Shown here: piece by piece, positions 7,438 to 25,738 of the stretch
How positions within the stretch are numbered: the first letter of the stretch is position 1
Layout of the letters: every line of letters starts with the position of its first letter
DNA from: an uncultured Acidobacteriota bacterium
GTDB lineage: Bacteria > Actinomycetota > Acidimicrobiia > Spongiisociales > ZC4RG35
Direction of reading: 5' to 3'
DNA length: 64,000 nucleotides
NCBI GenBank assembly: GCA_963828465.1
Contig: CAWHEU010000022.1
Location: forward strand, 64,001-128,000
The notes under the pieces: generated by a model
Databases searched by the model: none
The model's input: the letters and a program-made list of their open reading frames with translations, nothing else
What the model was told of the DNA's origin: nothing
Program-made: the position numbers and the translations under genes

Positions 7438-8400
7438 GTGATGCCGCCCACTCGATCGCCGGAGATCGAGTCCGTGACGCGCAGGGTGCTGCTCGCCTTC
7501 GAGACGGGCGACATGGCTGCCATGGCCAACCTGGTTTCAGCGGATCCCAGTCTGCGTGTTCTCGGATTCGCAGTCGACGAATGGTGGGCCGGTCCAGAGG
7601 AGTTCCTCACCATCCGGGAAACGCAGATCGCTGAGATCCCCGCCCTTCACATCCAGATCGAACGGGTCGATGCCTTCGAAGATGGTGCCTTCGGGTGGGC
7701 GGCGATCGCCACGACGGTGATCACACCCGAGTTGAAGACACCTATGAAGCACGCCGCCGTGCTGAGACTCGAGGCCGGGGCGTGGAAGGTGATCCTCTGG
7801 ACCAACTCGGTTCCGGTGCCAAACATCCAGATCTTTGGCGTTGAGTTGACCACCACCCTCGACGACCTGGTCACCTCGGTTCTGGACGAGCACAGCCGGT
7901 CCTCCACGGCTCTCGAGGGCACCATGACCCTGGTGTTCACCGACATCGTCGACTCGACGAGCCTCGCCGAGACCCTCGGAGATACCGCCTGGGCCGAGCT
8001 GATCAGCCGGCACGAATCCACTATCAGGCAGGTGACCGCATCACAGGGCGGGACGGTGGTCAAGCTGCTCGGTGACGGCTCGATGCTTGCCTTCGAGTCG
8101 GCCCGCGCCGCAGTACGTGCGGCAGTGGACATTCAGCGGGCCTCGGCTAGTGGCCCGTTCGGGGTCCGAATCGGTGTCCACACCGGAGAGGTGATCCGCA
8201 CCGCCGACGATCTACTGGGTCTGACGGTCAACAAAGCGGCCCGGGTTGCTGCTGCCGCCGATTCCGGGAGCATCATGCTCTCCTCGACAACCAGGGACCT
8301 GGTCGGCTCACTGGAAGGGATCAGAATGGGCGAGCCGAGGATCGTGGCGCTGAAAGGTCTCTCGGACACCCACCAAATCGTCCCCATCGGGTGGGAATGA
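7438..8400 (+). CDS. SnoaL/NTF2-like domain + class III adenylate cyclase
   Basis: N-terminal NTF2-like segment; VFTDIVDST, VKLLGDG, DLLGLTVNKAARV; TACACT 6 nt before GTG 7438. Confidence 0.88.
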   Translation: MMPPTRSPEIESVTRRVLLAFETGDMAAMANLVSADPSLRVLGFAVDEWWAGPEEFLTIRETQIAEIPALHIQIERVDAFEDGAFGWAAIATTVITPELKTPMKHAAVLRLEAGAWKVILWTNSVPVPNIQIFGVELTTTLDDLVTSVLDEHSRSSTALEGTMTLVFTDIVDSTSLAETLGDTAWAELISRHESTIRQVTASQGGTVVKLLGDGSMLAFESARAAVRAAVDIQRASASGPFGVRIGVHTGEVIRTADDLLGLTVNKAARVAAAADSGSIMLSSTTRDLVGSLEGIRMGEPRIVALKGLSDTHQIVPIGWE

Positions 8401-9809
8401 CGGCCGGCGATCTTCTCGAACCCGACGTCGACCCGCTGACCGCACCGGTCGGGACCGAGTTCGTAATCCAGCAGCATCATGCCACCCGCCTCCATCACGA
8501 TGTCCGATTGGAGATGATGAGCGGTGACGGCCCGGTCCTGGTCTCGTGGGCCGTTCCAAAGGGTCTGCCCCGACGCCGGGGTGACCGTCATCTCGCCATC
8601 CGCACTCCGGACCATGAGATGGAATGGGGCAGCTTCTCCGGGTCGATCGGGGAGGGGGAGTACGGGGGTGGGGATGTGCGAATCTTCGACCACGGCGAGT
8701 ACGAGCTCGTTGGCCGGACCGAGGACCGTCTCACCTTCCAGCTGAAAGGCGAGCGGCTCGCCGGTGTCTGGCATTTGGTGCACACCGGGCCTAAGGATGG
8801 AAAGGATCAGTGGCTGGCGTTGATGTCCAAGGACCTGCGACCGAAAGAGGAAGGACGACCGCCGGCGAAGCCCATGCTCGCCACTCTCACGGCTGAGGCT
8901 TTCGACGACGCGCAGTGGGGCTTCGAGCCGAAGTGGGACGGGATTCGTGCCATCGCCATGTGTGACGAGGAGACCCATCTCGTCACCCGCAATGACAAGG
9001 ACGTCACGATTGCCTACCCGGAACTACGCCGATTGCACGAGCAGACGGTCGCCCTCGAGGCGATGCTCGACGGAGAGATCGTCGCCTTCGACCACGGGGT
9101 GCCGTCGTTCCAGCGCCTCCAACAGCGGATGCATCTGAGGGACGAGCGGAAGATAGAGGAGATGGCCCGCCAGATACCAGTGGTCTACATCGTCTTCGAC
9201 CTCCTCTACGTCGACGGTGAGGACCTGACTGACCAGCCGCTGGAGGAGCGTCGCCGGATACTCGACGAATCGATCGTCCCCTCCGAGCAGATCCAGGTGT
9301 CACCGGTCACTCAGGGGAACGGAAAGGCGCTCTACAAAGCGGCGGAGAAGCAGGGCCTGGAGGGGATCATGGCCAAACGCTTTTCCTCGGTCTATCAGCC
9401 GGGGGAGCGATCCAAGGATTGGCTCAAGGTGAAGGTCACCTTCGACGCCGACGTGGTGATCGTGGGATGGACCGAAGGGGAGGGGAGCCGCGTCGGAAGT
9501 CTTGGTTCGCTGATGATGGCGGTGTACGACGACGGTGTGTTGCGTTACGTGGGCAATGTCGGGACCGGGTTCAAGACTCGTTCCCTCCCGGACATCTTCG
9601 ATCAGCTCAAAGCGCTCACGGAGACAAAGCCACCGTTTCCCTCCCGTCCCGAGCTGCGCCGTGCCCATTGGGTCAAGCCTTCGCTGGTGGCCGTGGTCGA
9701 GCATCGTGGTGTGACGTCGGCGGGGCGTCTCAGGTCGCCGTCGTTCCAGAGGTTCCGCGACGACAAGAAACCCAAGGAGTGCACCTTCGACTTGTTGTCG
9801 CCCGGCTGA
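8397..9809 (+). CDS. ligD: NHEJ LigD, phosphoesterase + ATP-dependent ligase domains (no polymerase domain)
   Basis: HHATRLHHDVRLE and SWAVPKG (PE domain); FEPKWDGIR, LDGEIV, EGIMAK, WLKVK (ligase); ATGA overlap with the upstream cyclase. Confidence 0.92.
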   Translation: MTAGDLLEPDVDPLTAPVGTEFVIQQHHATRLHHDVRLEMMSGDGPVLVSWAVPKGLPRRRGDRHLAIRTPDHEMEWGSFSGSIGEGEYGGGDVRIFDHGEYELVGRTEDRLTFQLKGERLAGVWHLVHTGPKDGKDQWLALMSKDLRPKEEGRPPAKPMLATLTAEAFDDAQWGFEPKWDGIRAIAMCDEETHLVTRNDKDVTIAYPELRRLHEQTVALEAMLDGEIVAFDHGVPSFQRLQQRMHLRDERKIEEMARQIPVVYIVFDLLYVDGEDLTDQPLEERRRILDESIVPSEQIQVSPVTQGNGKALYKAAEKQGLEGIMAKRFSSVYQPGERSKDWLKVKVTFDADVVIVGWTEGEGSRVGSLGSLMMAVYDDGVLRYVGNVGTGFKTRSLPDIFDQLKALTETKPPFPSRPELRRAHWVKPSLVAVVEHRGVTSAGRLRSPSFQRFRDDKKPKECTFDLLSPG

Positions 9810-9831: not shown

Positions 9832-12007
9832 ATGTCGGGCGATCACCACGACGCCGGCGACCGCTGGACGAATCTCCTGGGCGATTTCAAACTCGGTCGG
9901 CTTCCGGCAACAGTCGGCACAGGGCTGGTGTTGGCATTGGTCAATTCTCTGCTGAGCATCGCCCTGATGTCCCTGATCTTCGACGGGGCGCTCGACGAGC
10001 GCGTTTCCGATCGGGATTGGCTTGGGATTGGTTGCGTCGGCATTGGTCGCCGTGATAGCTGCCCTCGGCAGCAGCTTCCCCGGCATGTACGCAGGCGTTC
10101 AGGACGCGAGCGCGGCGATTCTCGGGCTCAGCGCAGCGTCGATCGCAGCCACGCTCGTGGGGCCCGCTGCAATCGACACAGTGCTCGTCATGTTGGCCGT
10201 GACGTCCCTGGCCACCGGGCTGGTGTTCTTGCTCATGGGCTACTTCGCCCTCGGTGACGTCGCCAGATTCGTGCCCTTTCCAGTGATCGGGGGCCTGCTC
10301 GCCGGCACCGGCTACCTCATCCTGGTCGGGGGGATCGAGATCATGGGAGTGGAGTCTGTGAGCGATCTGATGGCCGGGAATGCTCTGGGTCTGTTCTGGC
10401 CCGGCGTTGTGCTCGCTGTCATGTTCTTCATCGCCTCCCGTCGGAGGTGGCCATCATGGGCCTACCTGGTGTTCCTGGCCGCTGGTGTCATCGGCTTTCA
10501 CGCAATCACCCGAGCTCTGGGGATCGACAAGGCCGAATCCCTCGAGAGGGGCTGGCTGCTCGGCCCTTTCCCGGAAGGCAGCATGTGGCCAGGACTCGTC
10601 GTGGACGCCCTCGGCGGCGCCGACTGGGGGGCACTCGCCGGTGAGGCTGCGGGCCTCGTCACCATCCTGCTCATCGTTCCGATAACTCTCCTTCTCTACA
10701 TCGGTGCGCTCGAGATCGAGACCAAGTCCGATGTCGACATGAACGCCGAGCTGCGGGCGACCGGCTGGGCGAATGTCGCCGCCGGCGCAGTGGGCGGTCC
10801 GCCCGGCTACATGTACCTGGCCGACACATTGATCACCCAGCGACTTGTGGGCAGACGACGGGGTCCTGCGGTTGTCGCCGCCGTCGGGATCCTGAGCGTG
10901 TTGGTGGTCGGGGGCGTCGTCCTGGAGTTCGTGCCCGAATTCGTCATCGGCGGCCTGCTCTTGTTCGTCGGAGCCGACTTTGTGGTGGAGTGGTTGTGGT
11001 CTTCCCGCCGACGGATGACACGCCTGGATTACGCCCTCATGTGGGGAATTGTGCTGGTGATCGCCACTGTCGGGTTCCTTCCCGGTGTCGCCGCCGGTCT
11101 GGTGGCGGCGATCGCCCTTTTCGTCGTCAGATACAGCCGAATCGATGTCGTCAAGCACTCCCTGACTGCCAGAGACCACCGAAGCAACATGGAGCGTTCC
11201 GAGATAGACGCCGACTATCTCCAGGAAGCGGGTGATTCGGTTCTGATCCTCCAGCTCCAGGGATTCATCTTCTTTGGCACGGCGAGCCGGATCACCCGGC
11301 ATGTCCGGACCCGCCGGGAAAGCACCGAGACGCTGCGGTTCGTCATCTTCGACTTTCGACAGGTGACCGGAATCGACTCCTCGGCGGTGGTGCTGTTCGA
11401 GAGGATCGCCCTGCTCGCCCGAGAACACGGATTGATCCTGGTGTTCACCGGGCTGAGCCCGACCCACCGGGCCCAGTTCTCCGAGCTCATGAGTGATTAT
11501 GAAGACGTGATCCGGGACGAGACCGACCTCGATCACGGGATGGCCTGGGCGGAAGACCGTCTCCTCGCCGCCGCCGGAGTGGGTGACGGGCAGCAACGGG
11601 CCCTTCCGGCCCGGCTAGCCGATGAGCTCGCCCCCTACCTCGCCAGGCGCTCGATCCCTGCCGGGAGTCAGCTAATGCGGCAGGGGGAGCCCACATCTGG
11701 CATCTTTCTCATCGTGTCCGGGCGCGTGACTGTTCTTCTCGAAGGGCGCGACGGAGAGCAGGTTCGGCTTCGTACCCTTCTCGAGGGGACCGTATTGGGC
11801 GAGATCAGCCTGTATAGAGACGAGCCGCACACCGCCACGGCGGTCACCGACACCGAGTGTGAGGTGCTGCACCTCACGCCTGAGCGATTCAATGATCTCT
11901 GTCGGGACGCGCCGGCGGTGGCTGCCGACTTCCATGCCTTCGTGGCTCGGACCCTTGCCGGTCGGGTGAGCCACGCCAACCGCGCCATCAGGGCGCTCCA
12001 GAGTTGA
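9832..12007 (+). CDS. SulP family anion transporter with STAS and cNMP-binding domains, frameshift near 10000
   Basis: RFVPFPVIGGLLAGTG, LQGFIFFGTA, DFRQVTGIDSSA, LGEISL..PHTATA; N-terminus in ORF 9832-10257, rest in 10022-12007. Confidence 0.88.
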
Positions 12008-12032: not shown

Positions 12033-13172
12033 TTGACCACCATCCGCGGGACCGAGGAGCAGGGTGCGACCTTCGTCGAGCTCTTCTTCGATCTCGTCTT
12101 CGTATTCGCGGTGACCCAGGTGACCGCGGTCCTCGCTCATGACCTCACCGGGGCGGGTCTGACGCGCGCTCTGATCCTCTTCTGGCTGGTGTGGTGGGCG
12201 TGGACCCAATACACCTGGTCGCTCAACGAGGCCGACACGGAGCATGTCTCGATCCGGTTCATCACCCTCGTGGCGACGGCAGTCGCCTTTCTCATGGCGG
12301 TGACAATCCCTTTGATCACGAGCCCGTTTGGCTGGTTGTTCCCTCTCTCCTATCTGGTGCTCCGCACAGTGGGTATCTCCCTGCAGTGGAGACTGGCCGC
12401 AGGCGACCCGGTATGGGTTCGATCGGTGAAGACGTGGACCGTCCTGTCGAGTCTTGGCCTGCTGGCGATCATCGCTGCTGTCTTCCTCCCGCCGGATCGC
12501 CGGTTTCTCGCCTTGGGTATCGCCGCTCTCCTCGATGTGGTCGCGGCTCTAGGAGCCGGTCGAGGCGAGTGGAGGCTGTTCCCGGGTCATTTCGCCGAAC
12601 GGCACGGGCTGTTTGTCATCATCGTGCTCGGCGAATCTCTCATTGCGGCCGGTTTGACCCTCGCCGATCAATCGCTGACCGTTGGTCTCCTGTCGGTAGC
12701 AGTCACCGCCGTTGCCGGAAGCTGCGCCCTTTGGTGGACGTATTTTGGATGGGCGAGGGAGGCGCTCGAAGACAGGATGAAGGCACAGCCTCCGAAGAGG
12801 CTGGGGAGGTATGCCCGGGACGTGTACTCCTTTGCCCACTTCCCCCTCATCTTCGGAGTCATTGGCTTCGCAGTCGGCATCGAGGAGGCCATCGCCCATC
12901 CCAAGGACCCATTTTCGTTTCCCGGGGCCTTGGCGTTGTGCCTCGGAGTCGCCTTGATCCTGGGCGGGACGGGACTGGCTCTGACGCTGGCTCGCGTTCG
13001 CGTGCCTCCGATCCGCTGGTGGGCGGTAGTCGTGCTGATCGTCGCTGTCCCGTTGGTGCGGCTCATGCCGGCTTGGGTCGCAATGACCTTCGTGTCAGTC
13101 GTGGTGGCGGGTCTGGCCATGGCCGAGGAGTCCTCGCAACACGATCGCGGGACATCGGAGGCATCTGTCTAA
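12033..13172 (+). CDS. Low temperature requirement protein A (LtrA) family membrane protein
   Basis: ATFVELFFDLVFVFAVTQ, HFAERHGLFVIIVLGES. Confidence 0.92.
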   Translation: MTTIRGTEEQGATFVELFFDLVFVFAVTQVTAVLAHDLTGAGLTRALILFWLVWWAWTQYTWSLNEADTEHVSIRFITLVATAVAFLMAVTIPLITSPFGWLFPLSYLVLRTVGISLQWRLAAGDPVWVRSVKTWTVLSSLGLLAIIAAVFLPPDRRFLALGIAALLDVVAALGAGRGEWRLFPGHFAERHGLFVIIVLGESLIAAGLTLADQSLTVGLLSVAVTAVAGSCALWWTYFGWAREALEDRMKAQPPKRLGRYARDVYSFAHFPLIFGVIGFAVGIEEAIAHPKDPFSFPGALALCLGVALILGGTGLALTLARVRVPPIRWWAVVVLIVAVPLVRLMPAWVAMTFVSVVVAGLAMAEESSQHDRGTSEASV

Positions 13173-14716: not shown

Positions 14717-15319
14717 ATGTTGATCCGTCCGGTCGAGCCAGCAGATCTCGATGCCCTCTACGAGGTCTGTCTCCGCACCGGTGACGCCGGGGAGGACGCG
14801 AGCGCCCGGTTCGTCGACGGCCGTCTCCTCGGTGAGGTCTACGTCGGGCCCTACTTGATGATGCCTAGCGGGATCGGTTTCACCGCAGTAGCGGAAGGCT
14901 TCCCGTCCGGGTATGTCCTGGCCGCCGTCGACACCCGGCGATTCGAGGCCGAATGCGAGGCGGAGTGGTGGCCTCCGTTGCGCGATCGATACCCACAACC
15001 GGTGGTCGACGATCCGTCGACCGACGACGCCGAGATCATCGCCCTGATCCACGATCCGGAGAGCCCACCCGACGAGATCGTGGCCCGATATCCGGCCCAT
15101 CTCCACATCGATCTGCTCCCCGTCTTGCAGGGTAGAGGGGTGGGTCGAGAGATGATGAGCCGTCTCCTCGATGAGCTGCGGGCCAGGGGAGCGCCCGGTG
15201 TCCACCTCGGAGTCGACGCACGCAACCAGCGCGCCGTCGGCTTCTACGAGCACCTCGGTTTCGAACATCTCGATGACAGCGATGCTGTCGTGATGGGGGT
15301 GCGGCTCGACGAGAGCTGA
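14717..15319 (+). CDS. GNAT family N-acetyltransferase
   Basis: YPAHLHIDLLP.LQGRGVG, GVHLGV, N.RAVGFYEHLGF. Confidence 0.92.
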   Translation: MLIRPVEPADLDALYEVCLRTGDAGEDASARFVDGRLLGEVYVGPYLMMPSGIGFTAVAEGFPSGYVLAAVDTRRFEAECEAEWWPPLRDRYPQPVVDDPSTDDAEIIALIHDPESPPDEIVARYPAHLHIDLLPVLQGRGVGREMMSRLLDELRARGAPGVHLGVDARNQRAVGFYEHLGFEHLDDSDAVVMGVRLDES

Positions 15320-15585
15320 GGTCGAGGGGCCGAGAGTCCGGGGTGAATGGCATCTGGCGCCCTGTCAGGATCTGACGGGCGTCTTGCGGGTGCCACGTGG
15401 CGGACGGCCGGGCCGGGAGGAGCCCAAATTGACCATCCACCACGCGACCTCTGGTCTGTCGTGGCGACAGAGCCGATGCCGTGGGCCCAATCGGCCGCAC
15501 GAGCCAGAGCCAGGCCGTTTCGGCTGAAGGGCCCACAGCATCACTCATCGCCGCGTATCACCTCCTCTCTGACATCCACCCACCG

Positions 15586-17178
15586 TCAGCTGGAGAGATG
15601 TTGCGACTGACCGATCGACTGACCAGTGCCGTTCCGGTTGGCGGCTATCGCCTTGGTCCCGGCTTCGTTGGACTGATCGAGGTCCTTCTGGCCGCGGTCG
15701 GACATGTTGGACTGATCGGTTTCAGCGTTCGGCTGTGCGTTCTGGTTGGTGGTGTTGTTGTTCCCAGCCGTCTGTGACTGAGTCCTGACACACCGGTCGC
15801 AGTCCGCCCCGAGGCAGTCCTTGTCCTTGTGGTCGCGGTCGTCCTTGTCCTTGTGGTCGCGGTCGTCCTTGTCCTTGTGGTCGCGGTCGTCCTTGTCCTT
15901 GTGGTCGCGGTCGTCCTTGTCCTTGTGGTCGCGGTCGTCCTTGTCCTGGTGGTCGCGGTCGTCCTTGTCCTGGTGGTCGCGGTCGTCCTTGTCCCGGGCA
16001 GTCTGATCCTGGTCGATCGACTGCTCGGTGCCGTTCTCGTTGACGGCTAAGACGGTGGTCTCAGCCTCGTTGGACTGCTCGGCGCCATCGCGTTCGCGCT
16101 CCGACTCGTAGCCCTTGTTCCAGGTCGGATTCGGGGCCTGAGCCTGGTCGGATCCGGTCTGATTGGACTGGTTGGTCGTCGCGCTGGGAGTGGCGTCTTG
16201 GTTGGTGGTGTTGTTGTTCTCAGCTGTTTGCGTCTGAGATCCGCCACTTTCCGAACCGCACTTGCCGCAGCTATCACGGTCGTCACCGGCGGTCTGATCC
16301 TGGTCGATCGACTGCTCGGTGCCGTTCTCGTTGACGGCTACGACGGTGGTCTCAGCCTCGTTGGCTTGTTCGGCGCCACCGTTTTCACGATGCGAGTCAT
16401 CACTTTTCCACTCCTTCGGGGCCCAGGACTGACCCTTGTCAGACCCGATCTCGTTGGACTGGTTGGTCGTCGCGCTGGGAGTGGCGTTTTGGTTGGTGGT
16501 GTTGTTGTTCTCTGCGTATTGCTCGAGATAACCGTCACCTTCCGAACCGCACTTGCCACAGCCACCAAAGTCGTCACCGGCGGTCTGATCCTGGTCGATC
16601 GACTGCTCGGTGCCGTTCTGATTAACCCCAACGACAGTGGTCTCAGCCTCGTTTGACTGATCGACTTTGCCGTTGTTGCTGTCCTTGCTGAGGACGGCCA
16701 CCGGGGCATACACGTTGACCTGATTGGTCTCCGCGCTCGGCTCTGCGTTCTGGTTGGTCGTGTTGTTGTTCTCAGCTGTTTGCGTCTGAGATCCGCCACT
16801 TTCCGAACCGCACTTGCCGCAGCTATCACGGTCGTCACCGGCAGTCTGATCCTGGTCGATCGACTGCTCGGTGCCGTTCTCGTTGACGGCGACCACCTTC
16901 GTATCAGCCTCGTTCGACTGATCCACTTTGCCGTTGTTGCTACCGGTGCTGAGGACAGCTATCGGTGCATACACGTTGACCTGATTGGTCTCGGCGCTCG
17001 GCTCGGCGGTCTGGTTGGTCTCGTTTGTGTTGGTTGCTTCTTGGGTCAGGCTGATGATCGCCTCGGGGTCCACAGGGAGTGGACTCTCCGAACTGGCACT
17101 CGCCATTCCGGCGGTTGCGATCATTGCCCCACTGGCGAGCGCGGCCGTTGTCAGCGCTCTCTTGAGCCAGTGCTTCAT
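15586..17178 (-). CDS. Secreted Asn/Gln/Thr-rich repeat protein with CxxC linkers (functional-amyloid/beta-solenoid candidate)
   Basis: Signal peptide ending AGMASA; five imperfect repeats of A.N.N.TNQ.A.P.A.T.Q.N ... Q.NEA.T.V.AVN.NGTEQSIDQDQ; CGKC three times plus CDRC; RBS GGAGGTG. Confidence 0.8.
   Translation of the reverse strand: MKHWLKRALTTAALASGAMIATAGMASASSESPLPVDPEAIISLTQEATNTNETNQTAEPSAETNQVNVYAPIAVLSTGSNNGKVDQSNEADTKVVAVNENGTEQSIDQDQTAGDDRDSCGKCGSESGGSQTQTAENNNTTNQNAEPSAETNQVNVYAPVAVLSKDSNNGKVDQSNEAETTVVGVNQNGTEQSIDQDQTAGDDFGGCGKCGSEGDGYLEQYAENNNTTNQNATPSATTNQSNEIGSDKGQSWAPKEWKSDDSHRENGGAEQANEAETTVVAVNENGTEQSIDQDQTAGDDRDSCGKCGSESGGSQTQTAENNNTTNQDATPSATTNQSNQTGSDQAQAPNPTWNKGYESERERDGAEQSNEAETTVLAVNENGTEQSIDQDQTARDKDDRDHQDKDDRDHQDKDDRDHKDKDDRDHKDKDDRDHKDKDDRDHKDKDDRDHKDKDCLGADCDRCVRTQSQTAGNNNTTNQNAQPNAETDQSNMSDRGQKDLDQSNEAGTKAIAANRNGTGQSIGQSQHLSS
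15817..15993 (-). repeat. 24-bp coding tandem repeat, about 7.4 copies, encoding DKDDRDH(K/Q)
   Basis: gtccttgtccttgtggtcgcggtc units read directly. Confidence 0.97.
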
Positions 17179-17182
17179 GATT

Positions 17183-17255
17183 CACCTCCATTGGGTGTCT
17201 GAGAAAACGCGCGACGGGCAGTCAGTCCTCGCTCGCGCGTTGCGAAATGGAGGTG
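17183..17255 (-). promoter_or_regulatory. RBS-sequestering nested stem-loop (anti-SD) between the two repeat-protein genes
   Basis: Minus-strand mRNA: stop UAA, C, CACCUCCAUU ... AACGCGCGA ... UCGCGCGUU ... AAUGGAGGUG, AAUC, AUG; outer 10-bp and inner 9-bp perfect inverted repeats. Confidence 0.8.
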
Positions 17256-17256
17256 G

Positions 17257-18552
17257 TTAGCCGGGTAGCTCTAGTGCCTCTGCCAGGGCGAATGGGCGCC
17301 AGACAACCGGTCGAGGCCGGAGCCAGCGGCTCAACCGGGGCGCGATCAACCCGAGCAGAACGAGTACAGCTAGAAGACCTGATGTCGAGCCGGAGCTCGA
17401 GGAGGATGATGAGACAACGACCCCTGGTCGAGCTCGAAGCCCGGCACCCTCAAAGTCATACGGTGGGGGTTCAGGGCGGTTGGCGGCAGCTCTCGCGTCG
17501 GCTGCGCCGCCGGCCGCACTAGGAGTCGGCGACGCAGCAGCCACGACGGAATCCGAACCGTCGTCGACGATTACAGGCCGAGCCGTGAGCGGCGGTGGCA
17601 GCGGGCTACCGATTGTTGGCGGCTGTGGCCTCGTGGTGGGTCTCGTGGACCCCTGGTCCGGAGTGGGGATGGCTGTCTCCGGGTCATCGGAAGGGGGATT
17701 GGGCGCTGCCGGATCAGGATCCGTAGCAGAACCTCTGTCTGGGACGTCGTCGACTCCTCCGAGCAGATCTTCTGGCGAGGGGACCAAAGGGAGGGTGACA
17801 CCGACTAGATCATCGACCCCGTCGAGAATCGGGCCCGATACGTCATCGACGAGCCCGGTCGTTTCTTCGACCGTGGTCGTAACCACACCGAGAACGGGTT
17901 GCAGCGGCTCCGCGATCTGTTCGAGTGTCGGCGGAACAGTCCGGACAATTCGAGTCACCGGCTCTTCGATGGTGCCGGCGACGGAATCCACGACTTTCGG
18001 CACCGTATCGGTGACCGGTTCGGCGGCTTCGGTGACCGGTTCGACGACCCTGGTGACAGGTTCCACGGCTTCGGTGACCGGTTCGACGGCTTTGGCTACC
18101 GGTTCGACGACCCTGGTGACAGGTTCCACGGCTTTGGTGACCGGTTCGACGACTTGGGCTACCGGCTCGACGACCCTGGTGACCGGTTCCACGACTGCGT
18201 TCACGGGATTCTGCGGGGCGGGTTGCTGCGTGGGAGCGACGTCGCGCGAGGCTGGCTCAGGGACGATTTCGGTCACATCTTCGACGACTTCGGCAACACC
18301 AGTCTCCGACTGCTCGGGCTCCGGCTCGGGCGTAGATCCGGTTCCGGTTCCGAGGTCAATCTCCACTGGAAGCTCTTCGACGACCTCACCGATGCCGAGG
18401 GCCTGTGCGGTCCCGGCAGAGAGCGAGATCATGAATGCAGCCAGAGCGAGTGCGCCAGCGATCCTGGCGAGGGGATGTGCCTGACGCCGGTCTGCTGTTC
18501 CGGCCCGTGGAGCCTCTGTTACCGAATGCCTATCCATACCCAGCCCATGCAT
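17257..18552 (-). CDS. Exported Pro/Val/Glu-rich repeat protein with C-terminal TM helix and basic tail ending LELPG
   Basis: RBS GGGAGG before ATG 18552; hydrophobic signal ending AGTAQA; VEPV repeats; Ser run, GLLAVLVLLGLIAP, RLSRWLRPRP. Confidence 0.78.
   Translation of the reverse strand: MHGLGMDRHSVTEAPRAGTADRRQAHPLARIAGALALAAFMISLSAGTAQALGIGEVVEELPVEIDLGTGTGSTPEPEPEQSETGVAEVVEDVTEIVPEPASRDVAPTQQPAPQNPVNAVVEPVTRVVEPVAQVVEPVTKAVEPVTRVVEPVAKAVEPVTEAVEPVTRVVEPVTEAAEPVTDTVPKVVDSVAGTIEEPVTRIVRTVPPTLEQIAEPLQPVLGVVTTTVEETTGLVDDVSGPILDGVDDLVGVTLPLVPSPEDLLGGVDDVPDRGSATDPDPAAPNPPSDDPETAIPTPDQGSTRPTTRPQPPTIGSPLPPPLTARPVIVDDGSDSVVAAASPTPSAAGGAADARAAANRPEPPPYDFEGAGLRARPGVVVSSSSSSSGSTSGLLAVLVLLGLIAPRLSRWLRPRPVVWRPFALAEALELPG
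18007..18195 (-). repeat. 21-bp imperfect coding tandem repeat, 9 copies, encoding (V/A)VEPV(T/A)x
   Basis: VVEPVTR VVEPVAQ VVEPVTK AVEPVTR VVEPVAK AVEPVTE AVEPVTR VVEPVTE AAEPVTD. Confidence 0.93.
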
Positions 18553-18669
18553 ACCGTCGGACCTCCCGCGAGGGAGGTGCCTGGCTCCGGCGACGAGCAC
18601 CATACCCGACTCATGGGATCTCGAAACCACAACGGTTAGAAGCGCGAAAAGAAACCTTGCCGTGGCTCG

Positions 18670-18777
18670 TCATCCATCCGAGGCCGCGAGCGCCAGAGGT
18701 CGCGACCCCTCATCGGGTCCACCGGGACCCTGCATGATGCCGTCCAGGGTGACGAATGTGGTCGCGGTCAGGTTCAT
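18670..18777 (-). pseudogene. N-terminal remnant (35 aa) of a dihydrofolate reductase/RibD-C family gene
   Basis: RBS GAAGGAGAAGG, then MNLTATTFVTLDGIMQGPGGPDE, matching the family N-terminus, then early stop. Confidence 0.75.
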
Positions 18778-18897
18778 GACCTTCTCCTTCCTGACCGGTT
18801 TTCGGCCTTCATGACTAACGAATCGGTCCGGCCCGGATCGGCAAGTCCGAGAGTTCAATCCCAGGATGCCGACCACGCCCTGGTTAACGTTTTTCGC

Positions 18898-20289
18898 ATG
18901 GGAGCGAAGGTGGCGGGTCGAAACAGGGCTGGGCCCGCGTCCAAGCAATGGAGTATCCCCTCCAAGCTGACCTTGGCCACTGTGCCGATCGTGGTGGTTG
19001 CTGGCCTGCTCGGGGTGTTCCTGGTGTGGTCGCTGTCGGCTTCAGGAGATGTCTGGCTTGCGGTGATAGTCGGGATCGTTGTCGGGCTCGTGGCTGTCGG
19101 ATCGCTTGTCGTCTCTTACCGGATCGGCCGAGCGATCGGCACCCGAATCGGTGCTGTCACCCACGCAGCGAGGCGTGTCGCCCATAAGGATCTGGTCGAG
19201 CTGCTCGACGCACTGCGCACATCCGATCCTGGCTCCGACGCCATCTCACCACTGGGTCTCGACATCGACTCGGGCGATGAGATCGGTGATCTGTCCCGAT
19301 CATTCGAAAACATGCACCGGGCCTTGATCGATACTTCGACCCGACAGATGGAGTCTTTGCGTGTAGGGGTGTCGGGCATCCTGGTAACTCTCGCTCGGCG
19401 CAACAGCTCGCTGGTCGATCGACAGCTGGCGCTGCTCGACGAACTCGAGTCCCGCGAGGAGGATCCTGAGACCCTCGGAGGGTATTACCAGGTCGACCAT
19501 CTGGCGGCACGGATGCGCCGGAATGCCGAAAGCCTCCTCGTGCTCGCCGGGTCCGAGTCACCCCGTGTATGGGCTAAGCCCACGGAGATCTCCGATGTGG
19601 TTCGAGCTGCGCTGAGCGAGGTGGATGAGTACCAGCGCGTCGAGCTGCTCGCCTTGGAGCCGGCTCGCCTGTCTGCCGGAGCCGTTACCGATGTCGCACA
19701 TCTCCTCGCCGAGCTCTTCGAGAACTCCCTGCAGTTCTCTCCGCCGACCGAGCCCGTGCGCGTCACCGGGCTATTCGACGTCGGTGGGTATGAGCTCTCG
19801 ATCTCGGACCACGGGGTCGGGATATCCGACCCGAGGCTGGCCGAGATGAACCGGATCCTCGAGCGCCCGCCCGCCCTCGGCCTATCGGTCGAGCCCACGA
19901 TGGGGATATATGTCGTAGCGAAGCTCGCCCATCGGCACGGGCTCGATGTCCAGCTGATCCCCAGTGTCCCCGGAATCACTGTCAAGGTGACCATTCCCCG
20001 CGATCGTCTGGAGATGGCGAGGGTAGAGCCGGACTACGACGTCATCGATCTGACACAGCCAGAGATGATCGAAACCGCCGACCCTGAGCCGGTCGCGGTG
20101 GCGCCGGTGCCTGTCGCCGAGGTGGAAGCCGGAGATCTGCCGGTGCGCATCCCGGGCCGAGCGTTCCGCGAGGAGGAGCCGGCAACAACCATCGCTGCCG
20201 GAGAGGGCGGCGGCACCCTCAGATCGGCGCTGGTCGATTACAACCGGGGCAGGGCCGAGGCCGAGGCACAGGGGGAGAGCGATGACTGA
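18898..20289 (+). CDS. Conservon sensor histidine kinase-like protein (CvnA)
   Basis: Two TMs, HAMP (DEIGDLSRSF), LARR...LDELESREEDPETL...DHLAARMRRNAESLLVLAG, LAELFENS..FSPP, DHGVGI; TAACGT 7 nt before ATG 18898. Confidence 0.92.
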   Translation: MGAKVAGRNRAGPASKQWSIPSKLTLATVPIVVVAGLLGVFLVWSLSASGDVWLAVIVGIVVGLVAVGSLVVSYRIGRAIGTRIGAVTHAARRVAHKDLVELLDALRTSDPGSDAISPLGLDIDSGDEIGDLSRSFENMHRALIDTSTRQMESLRVGVSGILVTLARRNSSLVDRQLALLDELESREEDPETLGGYYQVDHLAARMRRNAESLLVLAGSESPRVWAKPTEISDVVRAALSEVDEYQRVELLALEPARLSAGAVTDVAHLLAELFENSLQFSPPTEPVRVTGLFDVGGYELSISDHGVGISDPRLAEMNRILERPPALGLSVEPTMGIYVVAKLAHRHGLDVQLIPSVPGITVKVTIPRDRLEMARVEPDYDVIDLTQPEMIETADPEPVAVAPVPVAEVEAGDLPVRIPGRAFREEEPATTIAAGEGGGTLRSALVDYNRGRAEAEAQGESDD

Positions 20290-20707
20290 CGCTGCCACCA
20301 ATCTCAACTGGCTGATCGAGCGTCTCTGCGCGACAGTGCCCGCCATCAAACAGGCGGTCGTGGTCTCATCCGATGGGCTCGCCATGGCCAAGTCACAGGA
20401 CGTCGACCGCGAGACGGCGGAGAGATTGGCTGCCGTGTCATCAGGCATGATCGGCCTGGCCTACGGGTCCGCCGGCCGGTTTGGGGCCGGTGCGGTGTCG
20501 AACATCATCGTCGAGATGCAGCAGGGTTGGCTCTTCGTCACCGGCATCCGTCACGGCTCCCTCCTCTGCTGTCTCACCAGCAAAGAGATCGACCTTGGGG
20601 CGGTCGCCTTCGAAATGTCCATCTTCGTGCAGCGGGTCGGCGACAGTCTCACTCCCGACGTTCGGGAGGAGCTCAAGGCACGGCTGGTCGAACCCGAGCC
20701 GGCATGA
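20282..20707 (+). CDS. Roadblock/LC7 domain protein (CvnB)
   Basis: LNWLI, AVVVSSDGL, AERLAAVSSG, VEMQQGWLFV. Confidence 0.93.
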   Translation: MTDAATNLNWLIERLCATVPAIKQAVVVSSDGLAMAKSQDVDRETAERLAAVSSGMIGLAYGSAGRFGAGAVSNIIVEMQQGWLFVTGIRHGSLLCCLTSKEIDLGAVAFEMSIFVQRVGDSLTPDVREELKARLVEPEPA

Positions 20708-21084
20708 GCACCGAGCCCGGAACCCCTCTCGGCGGCCGGATCGTCCGCCCATACACCATGACCGGTGGGCGGAGCGGTGTGGGACTCCCCAATATCGCCC
20801 TCGAAGCCCTGGTCGCCGTGACCCCTGCTGGGATGCGAATGCGGGGTCGTTTCCGCTGGGAAGCCGCTGAGATCATCGCCCAGAGCCGCAAGGAGATCGC
20901 CATCGTCGAGCTGGCGGCGAATCTCGAGGTCCCGGTCGGCGTGATCCGTGTTCTCGCCGCTGACCTGCGCGACCAAGGAGCGATCACCATCACCGAGCCG
21001 CTGTCCGAAGCCACGGTCGATTCAGGTGACACCGAATATGCCGAACTCCTCCACAAGGTGCTCGATGGGATCCGGGCTCTCTGA
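20704..21084 (+). CDS. DUF742 domain protein (CvnC)
   Basis: IVRPYTMTGGR, VELAANLEVPVGVIRVLAADL, LLHKVLDGIRAL; ATGA overlap. Confidence 0.93.
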   Translation: MSTEPGTPLGGRIVRPYTMTGGRSGVGLPNIALEALVAVTPAGMRMRGRFRWEAAEIIAQSRKEIAIVELAANLEVPVGVIRVLAADLRDQGAITITEPLSEATVDSGDTEYAELLHKVLDGIRAL

Positions 21085-21652
21085 GCGCACCGGGCTGACC
21101 CCGGTCAAGATCGTCATCGCCGGCGGCTTCGGCGTGGGCAAAACGACCTTCGTTGGCGCCATCTCCGAGATCGAGCCATTGCGAAGCGAGGCGATCATCA
21201 CCGACGCCAGCGCGGGGATCGATGAGCTCTACCCCGACGGCACTAAGACCGAAACGACGGTGGCCATGGATTTCGGCCGCATCAGCCTCAAGCATCGTCT
21301 CGTCCTCTATCTGTTCGGCACCCCCGGTCAGGACCGCTTCCATTTCATGTGGGACGAGCTGGCCCGGGGCGCCATTGGGGCAGTGGTCCTGGTCGACACC
21401 CGCCGAATCGAGGCGTGTTTTGCCGCCATCGACTTCTTCGAGAAGCGGGGAACACCGTTCGTAGTGGCGGTGAACACCTTCCACGGGCGTCGAATCCACG
21501 AGCCCGAACTGGTTCGGGAAGCACTGCGCATTGGCCCCGACATCCCGATTGTCTATTGCGATGCCAGGGTCCGTGTGGATGTCCAACGAGCGCTACAGGC
21601 GGTGGTCGAACACACCTTGGAACGGGTGATGTCCGAGTCTGCGGCCAGCTGA
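21065..21652 (+). CDS. Small ATP/GTP-binding protein (CvnD, MglA-like)
   Basis: KIVIAGGFGVGKTT, TTVAMDFGRI, LYLFGTPGQDRF, CDAR. Confidence 0.94.
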   Translation: MGSGLSERTGLTPVKIVIAGGFGVGKTTFVGAISEIEPLRSEAIITDASAGIDELYPDGTKTETTVAMDFGRISLKHRLVLYLFGTPGQDRFHFMWDELARGAIGAVVLVDTRRIEACFAAIDFFEKRGTPFVVAVNTFHGRRIHEPELVREALRIGPDIPIVYCDARVRVDVQRALQAVVEHTLERVMSESAAS

Positions 21653-21653
21653 C

Positions 21654-23282
21654 TCAGGCCGGAATGCCGACGGGCTCCGCCTCCCAAAGGCCCTGATTGA
21701 CCCTCAGCGATTCGGAGGGAAGCCGCAATTCGAAGACATTGTGCCCGTCTCCGGTGCGTCGGTAGGTGATGTCACCGTCCATCTGCCGGGCGAGACGTCG
21801 GGCCACCGTGAGGCTGAGACCCACAGCGGCCGGCCGGGTCACCGGGCCGCCGGCTCGAAGGTCGCCGTTGAAAATCTTCTCCCGATCAGGGACCGGTATG
21901 GCAGGCCCGTCATCGATGACGGATACGACGGTATCGGGTCCGGAGCCAGCCGTCTCCAGGCTGACGACCGATCCGCCGTATCGAACGGAATTGGCGATGA
22001 GGCTGTCGAGGATCCTGATGGTGATCCCTGGATCGGCCCACAACGAAGTCGCATCGATGTCGACCGCGATGTTCTCGGCACCAGGAATGTCGGACAGGGC
22101 CTCCCGGCATAGAACGGCGGCGTCGACGGAGCGCGCCAGATGATGTGACGGGGCCTTGCTAGCGGAGACGATGAGATCGTCGACGATCGAGGCCATCTCC
22201 TTGACTAGGGAATCGATGCGGCGAACGCTGCGATGCAGGTCGACCGGATCCCCCTCGGCCCGAGCAGTCAGATCGAGAACAGCGCCAATCGATACCCGGA
22301 GATCCTCGGCTATCGCCGCGACGAACTCGTCTCTGCCCTGGATCAAGCGCTCCAGGCGGAGTTCGTCGTGATGCGCTCGGGTCGAATCCTCAAGTTGGAG
22401 GAAGATTGTGGCCGGCCGATGCCTACCGGCGCGCAGGAAAGAGAGCGACAGCTGGCCCCAGATGGCCCGTCCGTTGGAGGCTCGCCAGCGCATCCAGGTG
22501 GTGGCGCTCTGTGTTTCGCCGTTGCCCATGTCCTCCCAGACCTGTCCCAACTCGGTGAGGTCGTCGGTGTGCACGACGCCCCTGATGTTTGTGCCGGCCA
22601 CCGGCCCGAGCACGCCGGTCAGAGCCTCATTGGCGTCGAGGAATTCACCGGAAGGTGTGAGCACGGCCATACCGATGTTCGCCTTTTCGAAGCCAAACCT
22701 GTACCCGTCCTCGCCAATTGCCCGCTTGGATTCCCCCCGCGCCGCCAGGCGCCAGCCGGCGATCAGGAGCGCCACCAGGACGAGCGTCAACGTAAGAAAC
22801 ACAACTGGCATCGCGACATGGCCCACGCCATAGCGTTGGATATACGCCTCTCGATACATCACGACGAAATTGAATATCTGGAACCCGACTACATAGACGA
22901 ACCCGGCGAGGACCAACCGCCACTCCTGATAGAACGAGATGGCGACGAGGGCGAGCAGGAAAGCGAATTGCGATTCGGCCGAACCCTCGAGGTAGCGGAC
23001 GACGATCCCCGCCGCGGTTACGAGGCCTAGCGAGACTGCTCCGGCGGCCATGCCCTGCGTCCTCGAGGTCATGCCGATCACGGCCATCACCACGAGGATC
23101 AGCGATGCGATCACGATCTCGTAGATAGGCACCTCCCTGACCAAGCCAACCACGGCGAGAACGGGCACCTGGACGAGGAGCAGAACGAGCAAGAAGCGAT
23201 GCCGGGTGGCGAAGACCTTCGCGTCCGTTTCCTCGCGGACTCGAAGCGGCCTTCTCTTCCCCGGAAAGAGACGCCTGAGCAT
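21654..23282 (-). CDS. Membrane PAS-domain sensor kinase-like protein with degenerate H-box
   Basis: About 5-6 TMs, PAS (ANIGMAVL, DANEAL, VHTDD), EFVAAIAEDLR, LIANSVRYGG, DDGPAIP, VGLSLTVARRLARQMDG; TATCGT 6 nt before ATG 23282. Confidence 0.85.
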   Translation of the reverse strand: MLRRLFPGKRRPLRVREETDAKVFATRHRFLLVLLLVQVPVLAVVGLVREVPIYEIVIASLILVVMAVIGMTSRTQGMAAGAVSLGLVTAAGIVVRYLEGSAESQFAFLLALVAISFYQEWRLVLAGFVYVVGFQIFNFVVMYREAYIQRYGVGHVAMPVVFLTLTLVLVALLIAGWRLAARGESKRAIGEDGYRFGFEKANIGMAVLTPSGEFLDANEALTGVLGPVAGTNIRGVVHTDDLTELGQVWEDMGNGETQSATTWMRWRASNGRAIWGQLSLSFLRAGRHRPATIFLQLEDSTRAHHDELRLERLIQGRDEFVAAIAEDLRVSIGAVLDLTARAEGDPVDLHRSVRRIDSLVKEMASIVDDLIVSASKAPSHHLARSVDAAVLCREALSDIPGAENIAVDIDATSLWADPGITIRILDSLIANSVRYGGSVVSLETAGSGPDTVVSVIDDGPAIPVPDREKIFNGDLRAGGPVTRPAAVGLSLTVARRLARQMDGDITYRRTGDGHNVFELRLPSESLRVNQGLWEAEPVGIPA

Positions 23283-23376
23283 CGGTACACGATATCGCCA
23301 CGGAGTCTCGAGGCCTGGCACCTCCAAATCCCGAGGTCCTTGGTTGGGCGGGCGCCGCGGAATACCGTTTGTGGCC

Positions 23377-24108
23377 ATGGACATCGCCCAATTGATCGAT
23401 ATCTCATTGGCCAACGGTGACGAGCGACGTGTTGAGGTGATGTCGCTGGAGCCGGCCGAGGTCCCCGCCCGAGCTGTTGGGTCATTGGTTGGCCTGCTCA
23501 CTGAGGTGACGGGTGTCCTGCGGGCTGCCAGGGCGGCCGAGAGGATCAGGGCCAGCGGTTCCTGGGCAGGCGACACCTATCGGATTTCGATCTCCACACC
23601 GGTTGGAGACTTCGGTGACGGGGTGTCGGCCATCAACCGGTTGTTGGGAGAGCCGGCGTTGGCTATGGGCGTCGCCTCAGCTGCTCGCCTGGCCGAAGGT
23701 CAGGATCTCTCGGTCCGTCTTGCCCCGGACGGCGCCGGCGCGGCATTCCATGTGCTGCTACCGGAGCATCTGGTGAAGAAAGTCGCACCATCTGAGCTGC
23801 CGACGATCGCTGAAGAGCCTCTTGCCGAATTCATCCCCCATGAGATGGATCGTCGGATCCTGGTGCCGGCGGATTCGGCCCGGGACGAAACCGAGGCGTT
23901 CCTGGAGAGTGTGTTCGGGATGCTGCGAGACCCGTGGCACGAGCCCGATCGCCCTGAGCCTGCGGTGCTAAAGGTGCGTGAGCCGGGGGAGAGCTTCTCG
24001 ATGACCGAAGACGATGCCCCGAGCACCTCTGCCGCGGAGGCTGCGGTGGACATCCGGTCGGCATTGTCCACCTTCGACCGTGGTCGTCGAGCCGCCGAAA
24101 TCGCATGA
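23377..24108 (+). CDS. Soluble degenerate paralogue of the CvnA C-terminal (HATPase-like) region
   Basis: RVEVMSLEPAEVPARAVGSLVGLLTEV vs CvnA RVELLALEPARLSAGAVTDVAHLLAEL; LKVREPGESF...IRSALSTFDRGR vs LPVRIPGRAF...LRSALVDYNRGR. Confidence 0.75.
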   Translation: MDIAQLIDISLANGDERRVEVMSLEPAEVPARAVGSLVGLLTEVTGVLRAARAAERIRASGSWAGDTYRISISTPVGDFGDGVSAINRLLGEPALAMGVASAARLAEGQDLSVRLAPDGAGAAFHVLLPEHLVKKVAPSELPTIAEEPLAEFIPHEMDRRILVPADSARDETEAFLESVFGMLRDPWHEPDRPEPAVLKVREPGESFSMTEDDAPSTSAAEAAVDIRSALSTFDRGRRAAEIA

Positions 24109-24566: not shown

Positions 24567-25738
24567 CTATACGGCCATGTCGGCTGTCAGCACGGCCGCC
24601 AGGACACCGGTAGCTCCGACGAGAACCCATAGAGGATCGGTCTGAACCAACAGACCGATGAGCGCCAGGAATGGGACTCCAGCCAGCCGGTTGATAGCTA
24701 TCGCTCGGTTCACCGCCCCGGGGGTGTGGCTGACGGACGCGATCTGGATGACCGCCATGCATACCAGGGCAAGGGCGACACCCCCACCAGGAGCCAGCGC
24801 TGGGCGGTGAGCATCGGCTCCTCACCCGCACTGAGAATGGCCTGGTCGAGTGCGACTCCGACGATCGCCAGCGATGCCGCTAGCGGTAGATGGGTGTAGA
24901 TCCAACCCGTCGGACGCCACGTCTTGCCCTCGATGTTCCGGCGCCTGACGACACTGCCCTCGGCGTTGTCGAAGTAGAGCCACCAGAGAAGCGTCGCCAA
25001 CAACACACCCAGGATCGTGGCGATCAGCGACGAAGACGACCATCCGATATGGCTGAGCCCGGACACGACGGCGGCGAGCGATTCGCCGAGCACGAGGATC
25101 ACGAACAGCCCGAAGCGCTCGGGGAGATGTGACTGGTCGAGAGGCACTGTGGCCTGTTGGCGTCTGACCACCCACGGTGTGGCGAGATCGATGGCCAGGG
25201 CCACCCCCCAAACGTAGAAGCGGGCCGGATCCGGTACGAGAACCGATGCCGTCCACACCACTGCCGCCGCGCCGAAGCCGATCAGGTAACCGGAGACCAG
25301 GCTGCGTGTCTCGGCGACATGCCGGTACACCCTGTAATAGAGGGCGAGGAGAACCAATCGGGCACTCGCATATCCGACTGCGAACACGGTGGTAGAGGCA
25401 GACGGGCCTTCGGCCAGAGAAGCGGCTATTACGAGGATGGCAACCATTTGTGCCGCCGACCACAACCGATAGATGAGATCGTCGGTGTCATAACGATCGG
25501 CGTAGAAAGTGTTGCTGGCCCAGAGCCACCAGAGCAGGGCGAAGTAACCGAAGAACGACCACAAGCCTGTCCACGACGTGTCGGCGAGGAGACGTGCTCC
25601 GAGAACTGCGATGGCCACCACAAAGGCGAGGTCATAGAAGAGCTCGAGCCAGGTGGCACTCCGATGCCCACCGTCTCCCATCGTCTGAAGACGGGGGGGA
25701 GCAATTCTTGCCATCCGCGCCGCTCTTGGCTCGCTCAC
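24567..25738 (-). CDS. Second LtrA family membrane protein, frameshift near 24783
   Basis: ATWLELFYDLAFV, HLPERFGLFVILVLGES; last TMs continue in ORF 24567-24758 after a G run one base short. Confidence 0.88.

Follow-up and report, generated by a model that had tools for sequence, protein, structure and literature searches.

The window analysed here, a 64,000-nt stretch of contig CAWHEU010000022.1 (assembly GCA_963828465.1) from an uncultured bacterium placed by GTDB in the Acidimicrobiia (Actinomycetota), carries on its minus strand a gene for a secreted repeat protein (P0001) and, directly upstream, a gene for a putative membrane-held partner. We tentatively propose, with somewhat less than even confidence, that the two genes form a cassette with which a monoderm soil actinobacterium makes a hydrophilic, acidic fibre or ribbon at its surface. 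The proposal is carried by the anatomy of the repeat, its pattern of buried and exposed residues, the contacts between the two arms of each repeat, the absence of end caps and the pairing of the two genes. An earlier note on this DNA, made from the letters alone, had singled out the repeat protein as a candidate functional amyloid. The gene and its product are laid out as follows.

15586..17178, minus: secreted repeat protein (P0001), 530 aa, a single open reading frame (ORF)
17183..17189, minus: Shine-Dalgarno sequence GGAGGTG, 4 nt 5' of the ATG at 17178; a strong ribosome-binding site, read from the sequence
17095..17178, minus: Sec-type signal peptide, residues 1-28, predicted cleavage after ASA; rule-based, by eye
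16846..17049, minus: repeat 1, residues 44-111, canonical arc NVYAPIAVLSTGSNNGKV; repeat hidden Markov model (HMM) hit at 45-111, 84.6 bits
16810..16821, minus: CGKC in linker 1, residues 120-123
16585..16788, minus: repeat 2, residues 131-198, canonical arc; repeat HMM, 77.6 bits
16549..16560, minus: CGKC in linker 2, residues 207-210
16294..16527, minus: repeat 3, residues 218-295, arms kept, longer polar insert instead of the arc; HMM, 49.4 bits
16258..16269, minus: CGKC in linker 3, residues 304-307
16003..16236, minus: repeat 4, residues 315-392, arms kept, longer polar insert instead of the arc; HMM, 42.7 bits
15817..15994, minus: tandem DKDDRDH(K/Q) array in linker 4, about 8 copies; Tandem Repeats Finder, period 24, 7.4 copies, 99% matches
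15790..15816, minus: CLGADCDRC (C455-x4-C460-x2-C463) in linker 4, residues 455-463
15601..15780, minus: repeat 5, residues 467-526, shortened arc, 4 residues after it; HMM, 41.1 bits

Read by eye, the N-terminus of P0001 (MKHWLKRALTTAALASGAMIATAGMASA/SS) contains the basic n-region (K/K/R), hydrophobic core and A-x-A site of the Sec-type signal peptide that the earlier note had described. The five repeats it had counted are confirmed by two anchors, both present in exactly five copies, N[TN]N[ET]TNQ at residues 50, 137, 224, 321 and 473 and GT[EG]QSI[DG]Q[DS]Q at residues 102, 189, 286, 383 and 517, and by periods of 291 and 261 nt in the DNA, with 84-85% matches. Its cysteine motifs were likewise located, CGKC in linkers 1-3 and C....CDRC in linker 4. 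The DKDDRDH(K/Q) array and the upstream partner gene were both absent from that note; the copy number of the array varies in close homologues, with more copies in P0002 and two in P0003. The mature protein is extremely hydrophilic and acidic, with a pI of 4.2, 103 Asp + Glu versus 43 Lys + Arg and a grand average of hydropathy (GRAVY) of -1.52. The gene is single-copy in its own genome, and its G+C content at third codon positions (0.78) is similar to that of adjoining genes. No sigma-70-like promoter was found in window positions 15200-19000.

Sequence comparison places P0001 in an unnamed Actinomycetota family with no known Pfam, NCBIfam, PHROG or PDB match. Searches of P0001 against Pfam and NCBIfam at E<=10 returned nothing meaningful, the PHROGs search returned weak low-complexity rows only, and a family profile searched against PDB sequences gave chance hits only (E 0.33 and 1.3). 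Inhibitor_I78, Chisel and CD34 Pfam rows in relatives were rejected as composition artefacts, no single stretch passing alone. A word-indexed search recovered 66 relatives, and an exhaustive search recovered 282 clusters at 50% identity with E<=1e-3 and 48 with E<=1e-30; none of these is named. No account of the repeat family or of the ERPG tail of the partner (described below) was found in a limited literature collection searched by literal word matching. No fused known domain was found in the long family members. One relative of 827 aa, P0050, has a 431-residue N-terminal extension with four W-x-W-x-W...C modules (e.g. LDWSWEWTWEWLCG), followed by an Arg-rich stretch that is seemingly out of frame; the W-rich extension recurs in none of the retrieved loci.

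An HMM iterated from the five repeats of P0001 identified 994 units; of the 196 family proteins, 195 have from 1 to 14 of them. Conservation was calculated from 998 aligned units, with source proteins down to 30% identity. The unit of 68 residues consists of two 27-residue arms joined by a 14-residue arc, with the consensus A-P-V-R-V-L-S-P-G-S-N-G-G-D, which includes conserved hydrophobics. Conservation follows a strict 2-residue period, falling on odd positions 1-27 in the first arm (Q1, Q3, A5, Q/N7, A/N9, T/N/S11, Q13, A15, A17, A19, T/A/S21, Q23, N25, N27) and on even positions 42-68 in the second (V42, Q44, N46, A48, A/S/T50, A52, A54, N56, N58, T60, Q62, I/V/A64, Q66, Q68), with variable residues in between. 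The alternation in two segments per repeat that had been noticed in P0001 is thus real, well above chance and kept family-wide. Twelve conserved-face positions are Gln or Asn in 98-100% of the units, and the conserved face as a whole comprises 49.9% Asn + Gln, 40.8% Ala/Ser/Thr/Gly, 8.7% hydrophobic and 0.3% charged residues; the variable face of the arms is 23% acidic and 8% basic. The exclusion of charge together with the two-residue period points to beta-strands with one buried face.

Contacts between the arms were sought by mutual information (MI) and mean-field direct coupling analysis (DCA) on 863 distinct units (effective number 594). The two methods concur that residue i of arm 1 is coupled to residue 69-i of arm 2. 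Among the 20 top DCA pairs at a separation of at least 5, ten lie exactly on the line i+j=69, all on the conserved face (19-50, 21-48, 11-58, 15-54, 17-52, 23-46, 5-64, 3-66, 27-42 and 25-44). Column-shuffled controls (n=5) placed 1-2 pairs on this line, with a maximum score of 2.0, and seven of the 15 pairs scoring above the best shuffled control are on it. The line is kept within each of two subfamilies, with 7 and 8 of their top 20 pairs on it. After removal of hub columns, mean MI was 0.105 at sum 69, versus at most 0.013 on all 16 other antidiagonals. The couplings are volume compensations: at pair 5-64, A-I was observed 213 times versus 154 expected, I-A 64 versus 19 and G-L 43 versus 12, with V-A enriched and A-A depleted (63 versus 129), and at pair 21-48, T-A, A-V and S-S are enriched. 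The zipper so defined is pseudo-symmetric, its central Ala/Ser/Thr stretch being flanked on either side by Gln/Asn pairs. These patterns suggest that the arms run antiparallel with their conserved faces packed together and their variable faces apart, which would make each unit a strand-arc-strand beta-arch of two sheets.

Stacking of such arches is suggested by several further features of the family. At any one buried position the residue is nearly invariant from unit to unit, as the Asn/Gln ladders of a parallel in-register stack require. Linker length has a 5th percentile of 6 and a median of 15 residues, and linkers of about 6 residues would be enough for a return arc. By sequence, the family proteins are without end caps: the median number of residues before the first unit is 35, signal peptide included, and that after the last is 9, while first and last units score 63.5 and 57.4 bits, versus 66.9 for internal ones (114 proteins). 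In P0001, 15 residues separate the predicted cleavage site from unit 1, and 4 follow unit 5. Unit number varies among syntenic loci of the Solirubrobacteraceae, which have 1, 2, 3 and 4 units, and apparently complete one-unit genes occur (L029:350-691, 113 aa, and P0160); one arch by itself cannot be stable. The ESM Atlas model of P0029, a homologue with 30% identity, has a predicted template modelling (TM) score of 0.83 and a predicted local distance difference test (pLDDT) of 0.80, and its structural neighbours outside the family, all at low TM scores (0.17-0.23), belong to the beta-helix proteins (SufD, Antigen 43). ESMFold is reported to be free of the bias of AF2 to false beta-solenoids (PMC11795689). 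The earlier suggestion of a beta-solenoid or amyloid subunit thus gains a sequence signature stronger than the one first seen, with its 2-residue period, buried Asn/Gln face, coevolution and lack of caps, and the parallel stacking of rungs and their polymerisation are what these features would predict.

The second gene of the cassette is described by the following features.

17257..18630, minus: partner gene, 78 nt upstream of the repeat gene
18008..18196, minus: tandem repeat DNA with periods 21 and 63, encoding the VEPVT stalk repeats
17260..17439, minus: last 60 residues of the partner, comprising a membrane helix, a basic stretch and the conserved ..PG end; alignment and genome searches

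From its N-terminus onward, the partner has a signal peptide (..AQA/LG), tandem VEPVTxx repeats of acidic character, a stretch rich in Pro, a hydrophobic helix, RWLRPRP and a tail; comparison with locus L009 indicates that its true start is probably Met27 (18552). In the window the protein ends ..RWLRPRPVVWRPFALAEALELPG, i.e. with ..ELPG as the very last residues; the typical tail elsewhere is ..RRLRLA....APFVLIPERPG, and the family end is (E/D)RPG. The partner in the window matches no Pfam or NCBIfam family; six partners had no Pfam match, and six gave chance low-complexity rows only against NCBIfam at E<=1. By the positive-inside rule, the tail would be cytoplasmic and the stalk external.

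The repeat and partner genes co-occur strictly in the genomes sampled. The partner lies directly upstream on the same strand at 20 of 22 assessable genome loci, a count that leaves out one locus cut at a contig end; of the two remaining, one has a variant tail (..LESPG) and one an N-terminal part only. At 45 assessable metagenome loci, a tail HMM finds the partner in 33, eight others end in RPG or RPPG by eye, three are variants and one is without a partner. Full-length tail matches were found only in genomes with the repeat gene and adjoin it there, in G061 and G073 among 100 genomes of the family and in G319 and G462 among 400 of the phylum; other weak tail hits cover only low-complexity or helix parts. 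No other gene is conserved around the pair across loci, no terminator-like site was found on the minus strand between the two genes, and Rfam searches of 12 loci at gathering thresholds returned one tRNA only, with no riboswitch upstream. By analogy, the partner may tether or seed the polymer; TapA serves TasA in this way. Length differences were seen in both genes: a soil-metagenome contig (run X1) skips exactly 291 nt, or one repeat, in window 16162-16454, and a contig of a relative of about 92% similarity (run X5) is without 105 nt of the VEPVT repeats of the partner (18016-18122). Contigs of four metagenome runs were aligned to the window and are fragmentary; both gaps may represent copy-number variation or assembly collapse.

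Taken together, the cassette could work as follows. P0001 would be exported by Sec, presumably unfolded, and outside the cell each 68-residue unit would become a strand-arc-strand beta-arch in which the two arms pack by their inward faces as a dry zipper, with Gln/Asn at the ends and Ala/Ser/Thr in the middle. Stacked in register, the five arches would give a flat solenoid of two sheets, stabilised by Asn/Gln ladders. The Gly/Ser/Asp linkers, together with the CxxC pairs and the DKDDRDH array, would protrude as loops at one edge of it and form a fuzzy coat. With both ends being uncapped full rungs, subunits would stack head to tail into a polymer. The partner, once its signal peptide is removed, would be held in the membrane by its C-terminus, pass through the wall as a low-complexity stalk, and tether or seed the polymer. 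A fuller version of this scheme, rather unlikely in all its particulars, is an undescribed surface-fibre system of soil Actinomycetota in which a non-curlin, 'giant-rung' cross-beta subunit, with 68-residue arches about 9 nm in width, a polar Gln/Asn plus Ala/Ser zipper and hardly any hydrophobic core, forms a ribbon-like amyloid, a dedicated membrane stalk with the new (E/D)RPG module both seeds and tethers it, and cations that neutralise the acidic ladders and Cys pairs that staple the linkers gate its assembly.

Several observations weigh against a fibre of this kind. The basis of the predicted fold is sequence statistics plus a single database model, that of a homologue with 30% identity. 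The i+j=69 contacts would suit an in-plane hairpin equally, and the arch is preferred only through the uncoupled exposed face. Within P0001 itself, mid-arm position 17 is Pro in all five units, a residue coupled with Val52 (P-V 24 observed versus 1.1 expected), and units 3-5, whose scores reach only 41-49 bits, lack the canonical hydrophobic arc. The mature protein is strongly acidic, and when exposed charged pairs at the same position of adjacent units are compared, 3122 of 3771 (83%) have like sign; an in-register acidic stack would therefore need counter-ions, and a dedicated test found no salt-bridge ladders between adjacent units. The one-unit genes could be assembly collapses. The partner has no homology to the repeat and no Cys, and its link to the fibre is guilt by association. 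Among the sequencing runs listed as carrying this DNA, none is of RNA.

In a doubtful but serious alternative, the same stacked beta-arches do not polymerise and instead form a monomeric or oligomeric hydrophilic coat that the partner keeps close to the cell. Cations or water would be bound by its acidic face and its linkers rich in Asp, His and Cys (desiccation, metal buffering in soil). The pI of 4.2, the like-charge ladders with their requirement for counter-ions, the richness of the linkers in G, S, D, K, C and H, and the zwitterionic DKDDRDH array of varying copy number are all consistent with such a coat, as is the origin of near-identical DNA, which was found mostly in soil metagenomes (at shares of at most 0.25). 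The uncapped, canonical terminal rungs and the family members of only one or two units are hard to square with a stable monomer, and the exposed face, being unconserved, presents no evident specific ligand surface.

Far less probable is an arrangement of in-plane antiparallel hairpins in a single flat beta-meander, whose N/Q/T/A face would bind a periodic substrate such as ice, a mineral or a polysaccharide. The i+j=69 contacts are equally those of a hairpin, and T/N/Q/A arrays on a flat sheet recall ice-binding sites. A hairpin would, however, give both faces cross-strand neighbours, which argues for the beta-arch: MI on the variable face has no antidiagonal peak, and exposed-face pairs across the arms show no charge pairing, the opposite-sign fraction being 0.28 at sum 69, the lowest of nine sums. 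The A-I, I-A and G-L size compensation points to packing on another layer, the connecting arc is 14 residues long with conserved hydrophobics, and a coreless single-layer sheet of about 9 x 5 nm corresponds to no known stable design.

That P0001 is an intrinsically disordered, low-complexity, secreted acidic protein whose repeats stem from recent duplication rather than structure is highly improbable: the GRAVY of -1.52, the very few hydrophobic residues and the spurious, low-complexity Pfam matches of its relatives fit disorder, but 12 positions held as Gln or Asn across proteins down to 30% identity, the strict conservation period, the specific pairwise coevolution and the pLDDT of the P0029 model speak against it.

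We give equally little credence to the idea that the Cys/His-rich linkers are the functional part, forming an extracellular metal- or redox-active scaffold with the repeats as mere spacers. Vicinal Cys pairs occur in 353 of 776 family linkers (CxC 223, CC 84, CxxC 60), the number of Cys is even in 346 of the 376 linkers that have any, and some relatives have CxxxC/His runs (e.g. ...NPCHDKC...). Against this, the other 400 linkers and 31 of 195 family proteins are free of Cys, and the linkers are the least conserved part of the proteins and the repeats the most conserved. As for the cross-linking proposed in the earlier note, the Cys pairs, judged across the family, are a frequent accessory that is inessential and does not define it. 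They might hold adjoining linkers together at one edge, or serve to bind metal. A search of the genome, which is 92% complete, found one DSBA-family gene and neither VKOR nor Thioredoxin_4.

The repeat gene is rare and patchy in its distribution. A search with P0001 recovered it from 2 of 100 other genomes of the family and from none of five of the genus, a count that leaves out a third row (G029) whose match is confined to the DKDDRDH stretch; a search with the family alignment recovered it from 2 of 400 other genomes of the phylum. The 23 genome loci come from Acidimicrobiia, Solirubrobacteraceae/Solirubrobacterales, Conexibacter and unclassified Actinomycetota metagenome-assembled genomes, and one is labelled 'Acidobacteriota' (L014). 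The repeat gene of L014 is 67% identical to that of the window and has conservon and sensor-kinase neighbours as in the window, which makes its phylum label or binning look doubtful; both of its cassette genes are split by frameshifts.

The repeat gene of the window has as neighbours an aminotransferase gene, a GNAT gene, the gene with the ERPG tail and a complete, divergently oriented conservon-like operon (18811-21652, plus).

18811-20289, plus: HAMP/HATPase sensor of the conservon
20282-20707, plus: Roadblock/LC7 protein of the conservon
within 20527-21084, plus: ORF with a VRPYTMTGGR motif typical of DUF742
20948-21652, plus: ATP_bind_1 GTPase of the conservon
21654-23576, minus: second HATPase protein, after the conservon and on the opposite strand
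18670-18948, minus: gene remnant ORF; residues 58-80 match the start of a 202-aa gene of G046 (MKLTVTTFVTLDGVMQGPGG...) at 83% identity, after which homology stops

A general regulatory link between cassette and conservon was ruled out, as their synteny is confined to the window and L014. In two genomes of the same genus, about 7.4 kb separate the GNAT gene from the conservon kinase; in the window, this interval is 3.5 kb. In one of the former (G046, locus L106) it contains ABC-transporter genes, a large regulator and the 202-aa gene; in the window it contains the cassette, and only the first 23 codons of the 202-aa gene remain. The short interval and the remnant indicate that the cassette is an accessory insertion or replacement, and by this sequence comparison the remnant marks one edge of the replacement that introduced it. 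Elsewhere in the window, the LtrA family (low temperature requirement A) is represented by two paralogues no more than 13 kb apart (12033-13172, plus, and 24710-25738, minus; Pfam E ~1e-78 each), and a LigD-type ATP-dependent DNA ligase with a 3'-phosphoesterase domain (8391-9809, plus) adjoins a SulP-family transporter fused to STAS and cyclic-nucleotide-binding domains (10022-12007, plus).

To our knowledge, functional amyloids of known architecture are few (curli, Fap and, in part, the chaplins and TasA-like fibres), and those made of stacked repeats are from diderms. If the proposed fibre exists, it would mean that the stacked beta-arch design arose independently in soil-dwelling, monoderm Actinomycetota (Acidimicrobiia, Solirubrobacterales, Conexibacter), here with rungs about three to four times wider than those of curli and a core almost purely polar or small. 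It would also suggest a function for several hundred 'hypothetical' proteins of abundant, poorly cultured soil lineages and, as two genes would suffice, an attractive minimal and engineerable protein material. The membrane module of the partner, with its (E/D)RPG end, is an unannotated motif that can now be searched for.

By sequence, the repeat family is unrelated to known amyloid families, in agreement with the earlier statement that no curlin, Fap or chaplin domain is recognisable in P0001. The curlin repeat PF07012 and the chaplin domain PF03777 had no hit in P0001 at E<=10, and TasA-type families had no match in its Pfam search. Across the genome, no curlin repeat was found (an E. coli control was positive), and a chaplin search gave no match, with a positive control equally silent. 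Alignment of the repeat profile by hhalign with E. coli CsgA and CsgB gave probabilities of 0.1-0.2%, the same as for five shuffled CsgA sequences. Likewise, no Fap family was hit by P0001 in Pfam or NCBIfam, and the locus has no fapA-F-like neighbours or operon.

Reports on FapC describe a few imperfect repeats that each form one cross-beta layer, variable disordered linkers that form a fuzzy coat (PMC12392863), and a C-x-x-C motif (CTVC) outside the core (10.64898/2026.04.28.719052), which bears out the earlier remark that FapC has a CxxC. To that extent P0001 resembles FapC in its few imperfect, putatively layer-forming repeats, variable linkers, CxxC outside the core and buried Asn/Gln. 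The layers of FapC differ in being Greek-key folds of five short strands with hydrophobic cores, and FapC is encoded in a six-gene fapA-F operon with an outer-membrane channel (FapF), with nothing comparable here.

Among monoderms, Bacillus has TasA with its accessory protein TapA, and Streptomyces has chaplins with wall-anchored long chaplins. The cassette shares with these the logic of a Sec-exported subunit and an adjoining gene for a cell-bound accessory protein. It differs in that its partner would be held by a membrane helix and an (E/D)RPG tail, has no sortase signal and is not a homologue of the subunit. In its Pro/Gly-rich motif, Ser/Gly spacer, hydrophobic helix and Arg cluster, the partner resembles the LPXTG, PEP-CTERM and GlyGly-CTERM signals, from which it differs by about 17 further residues after the Arg cluster, ending precisely in (E/D)RPG; no curated sorting-signal model of NCBIfam or Pfam matched the partners, and no sorting enzyme is conserved nearby.

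The closest likeness is to curli. The curlin repeat is described as a strand-arc-strand with an inward N...Q zipper and the signature N-$-Psi-$-Psi-$-Q occurring twice (PMC10192328). On that description, CsgA and P0001 have in common secreted tandem repeats, a beta-arch with a zipper ended by Asn/Gln and a small or hydrophobic middle (both predicted here), polar or charged variable residues at exposed positions, a variable number of repeats and uncapped ends. At the locus, no equivalents of csgB, csgE, csgF or csgG were found nearby, and the partner is not homologous to the repeat. The cassette further differs from curli in its monoderm host, in the long, variable and often Cys-bearing linkers that would join its rungs, and in its scale, each arm having 14 inward positions in 27 residues, versus 4 in 7 residues in curlin, and each rung 68 residues, versus about 20-23.

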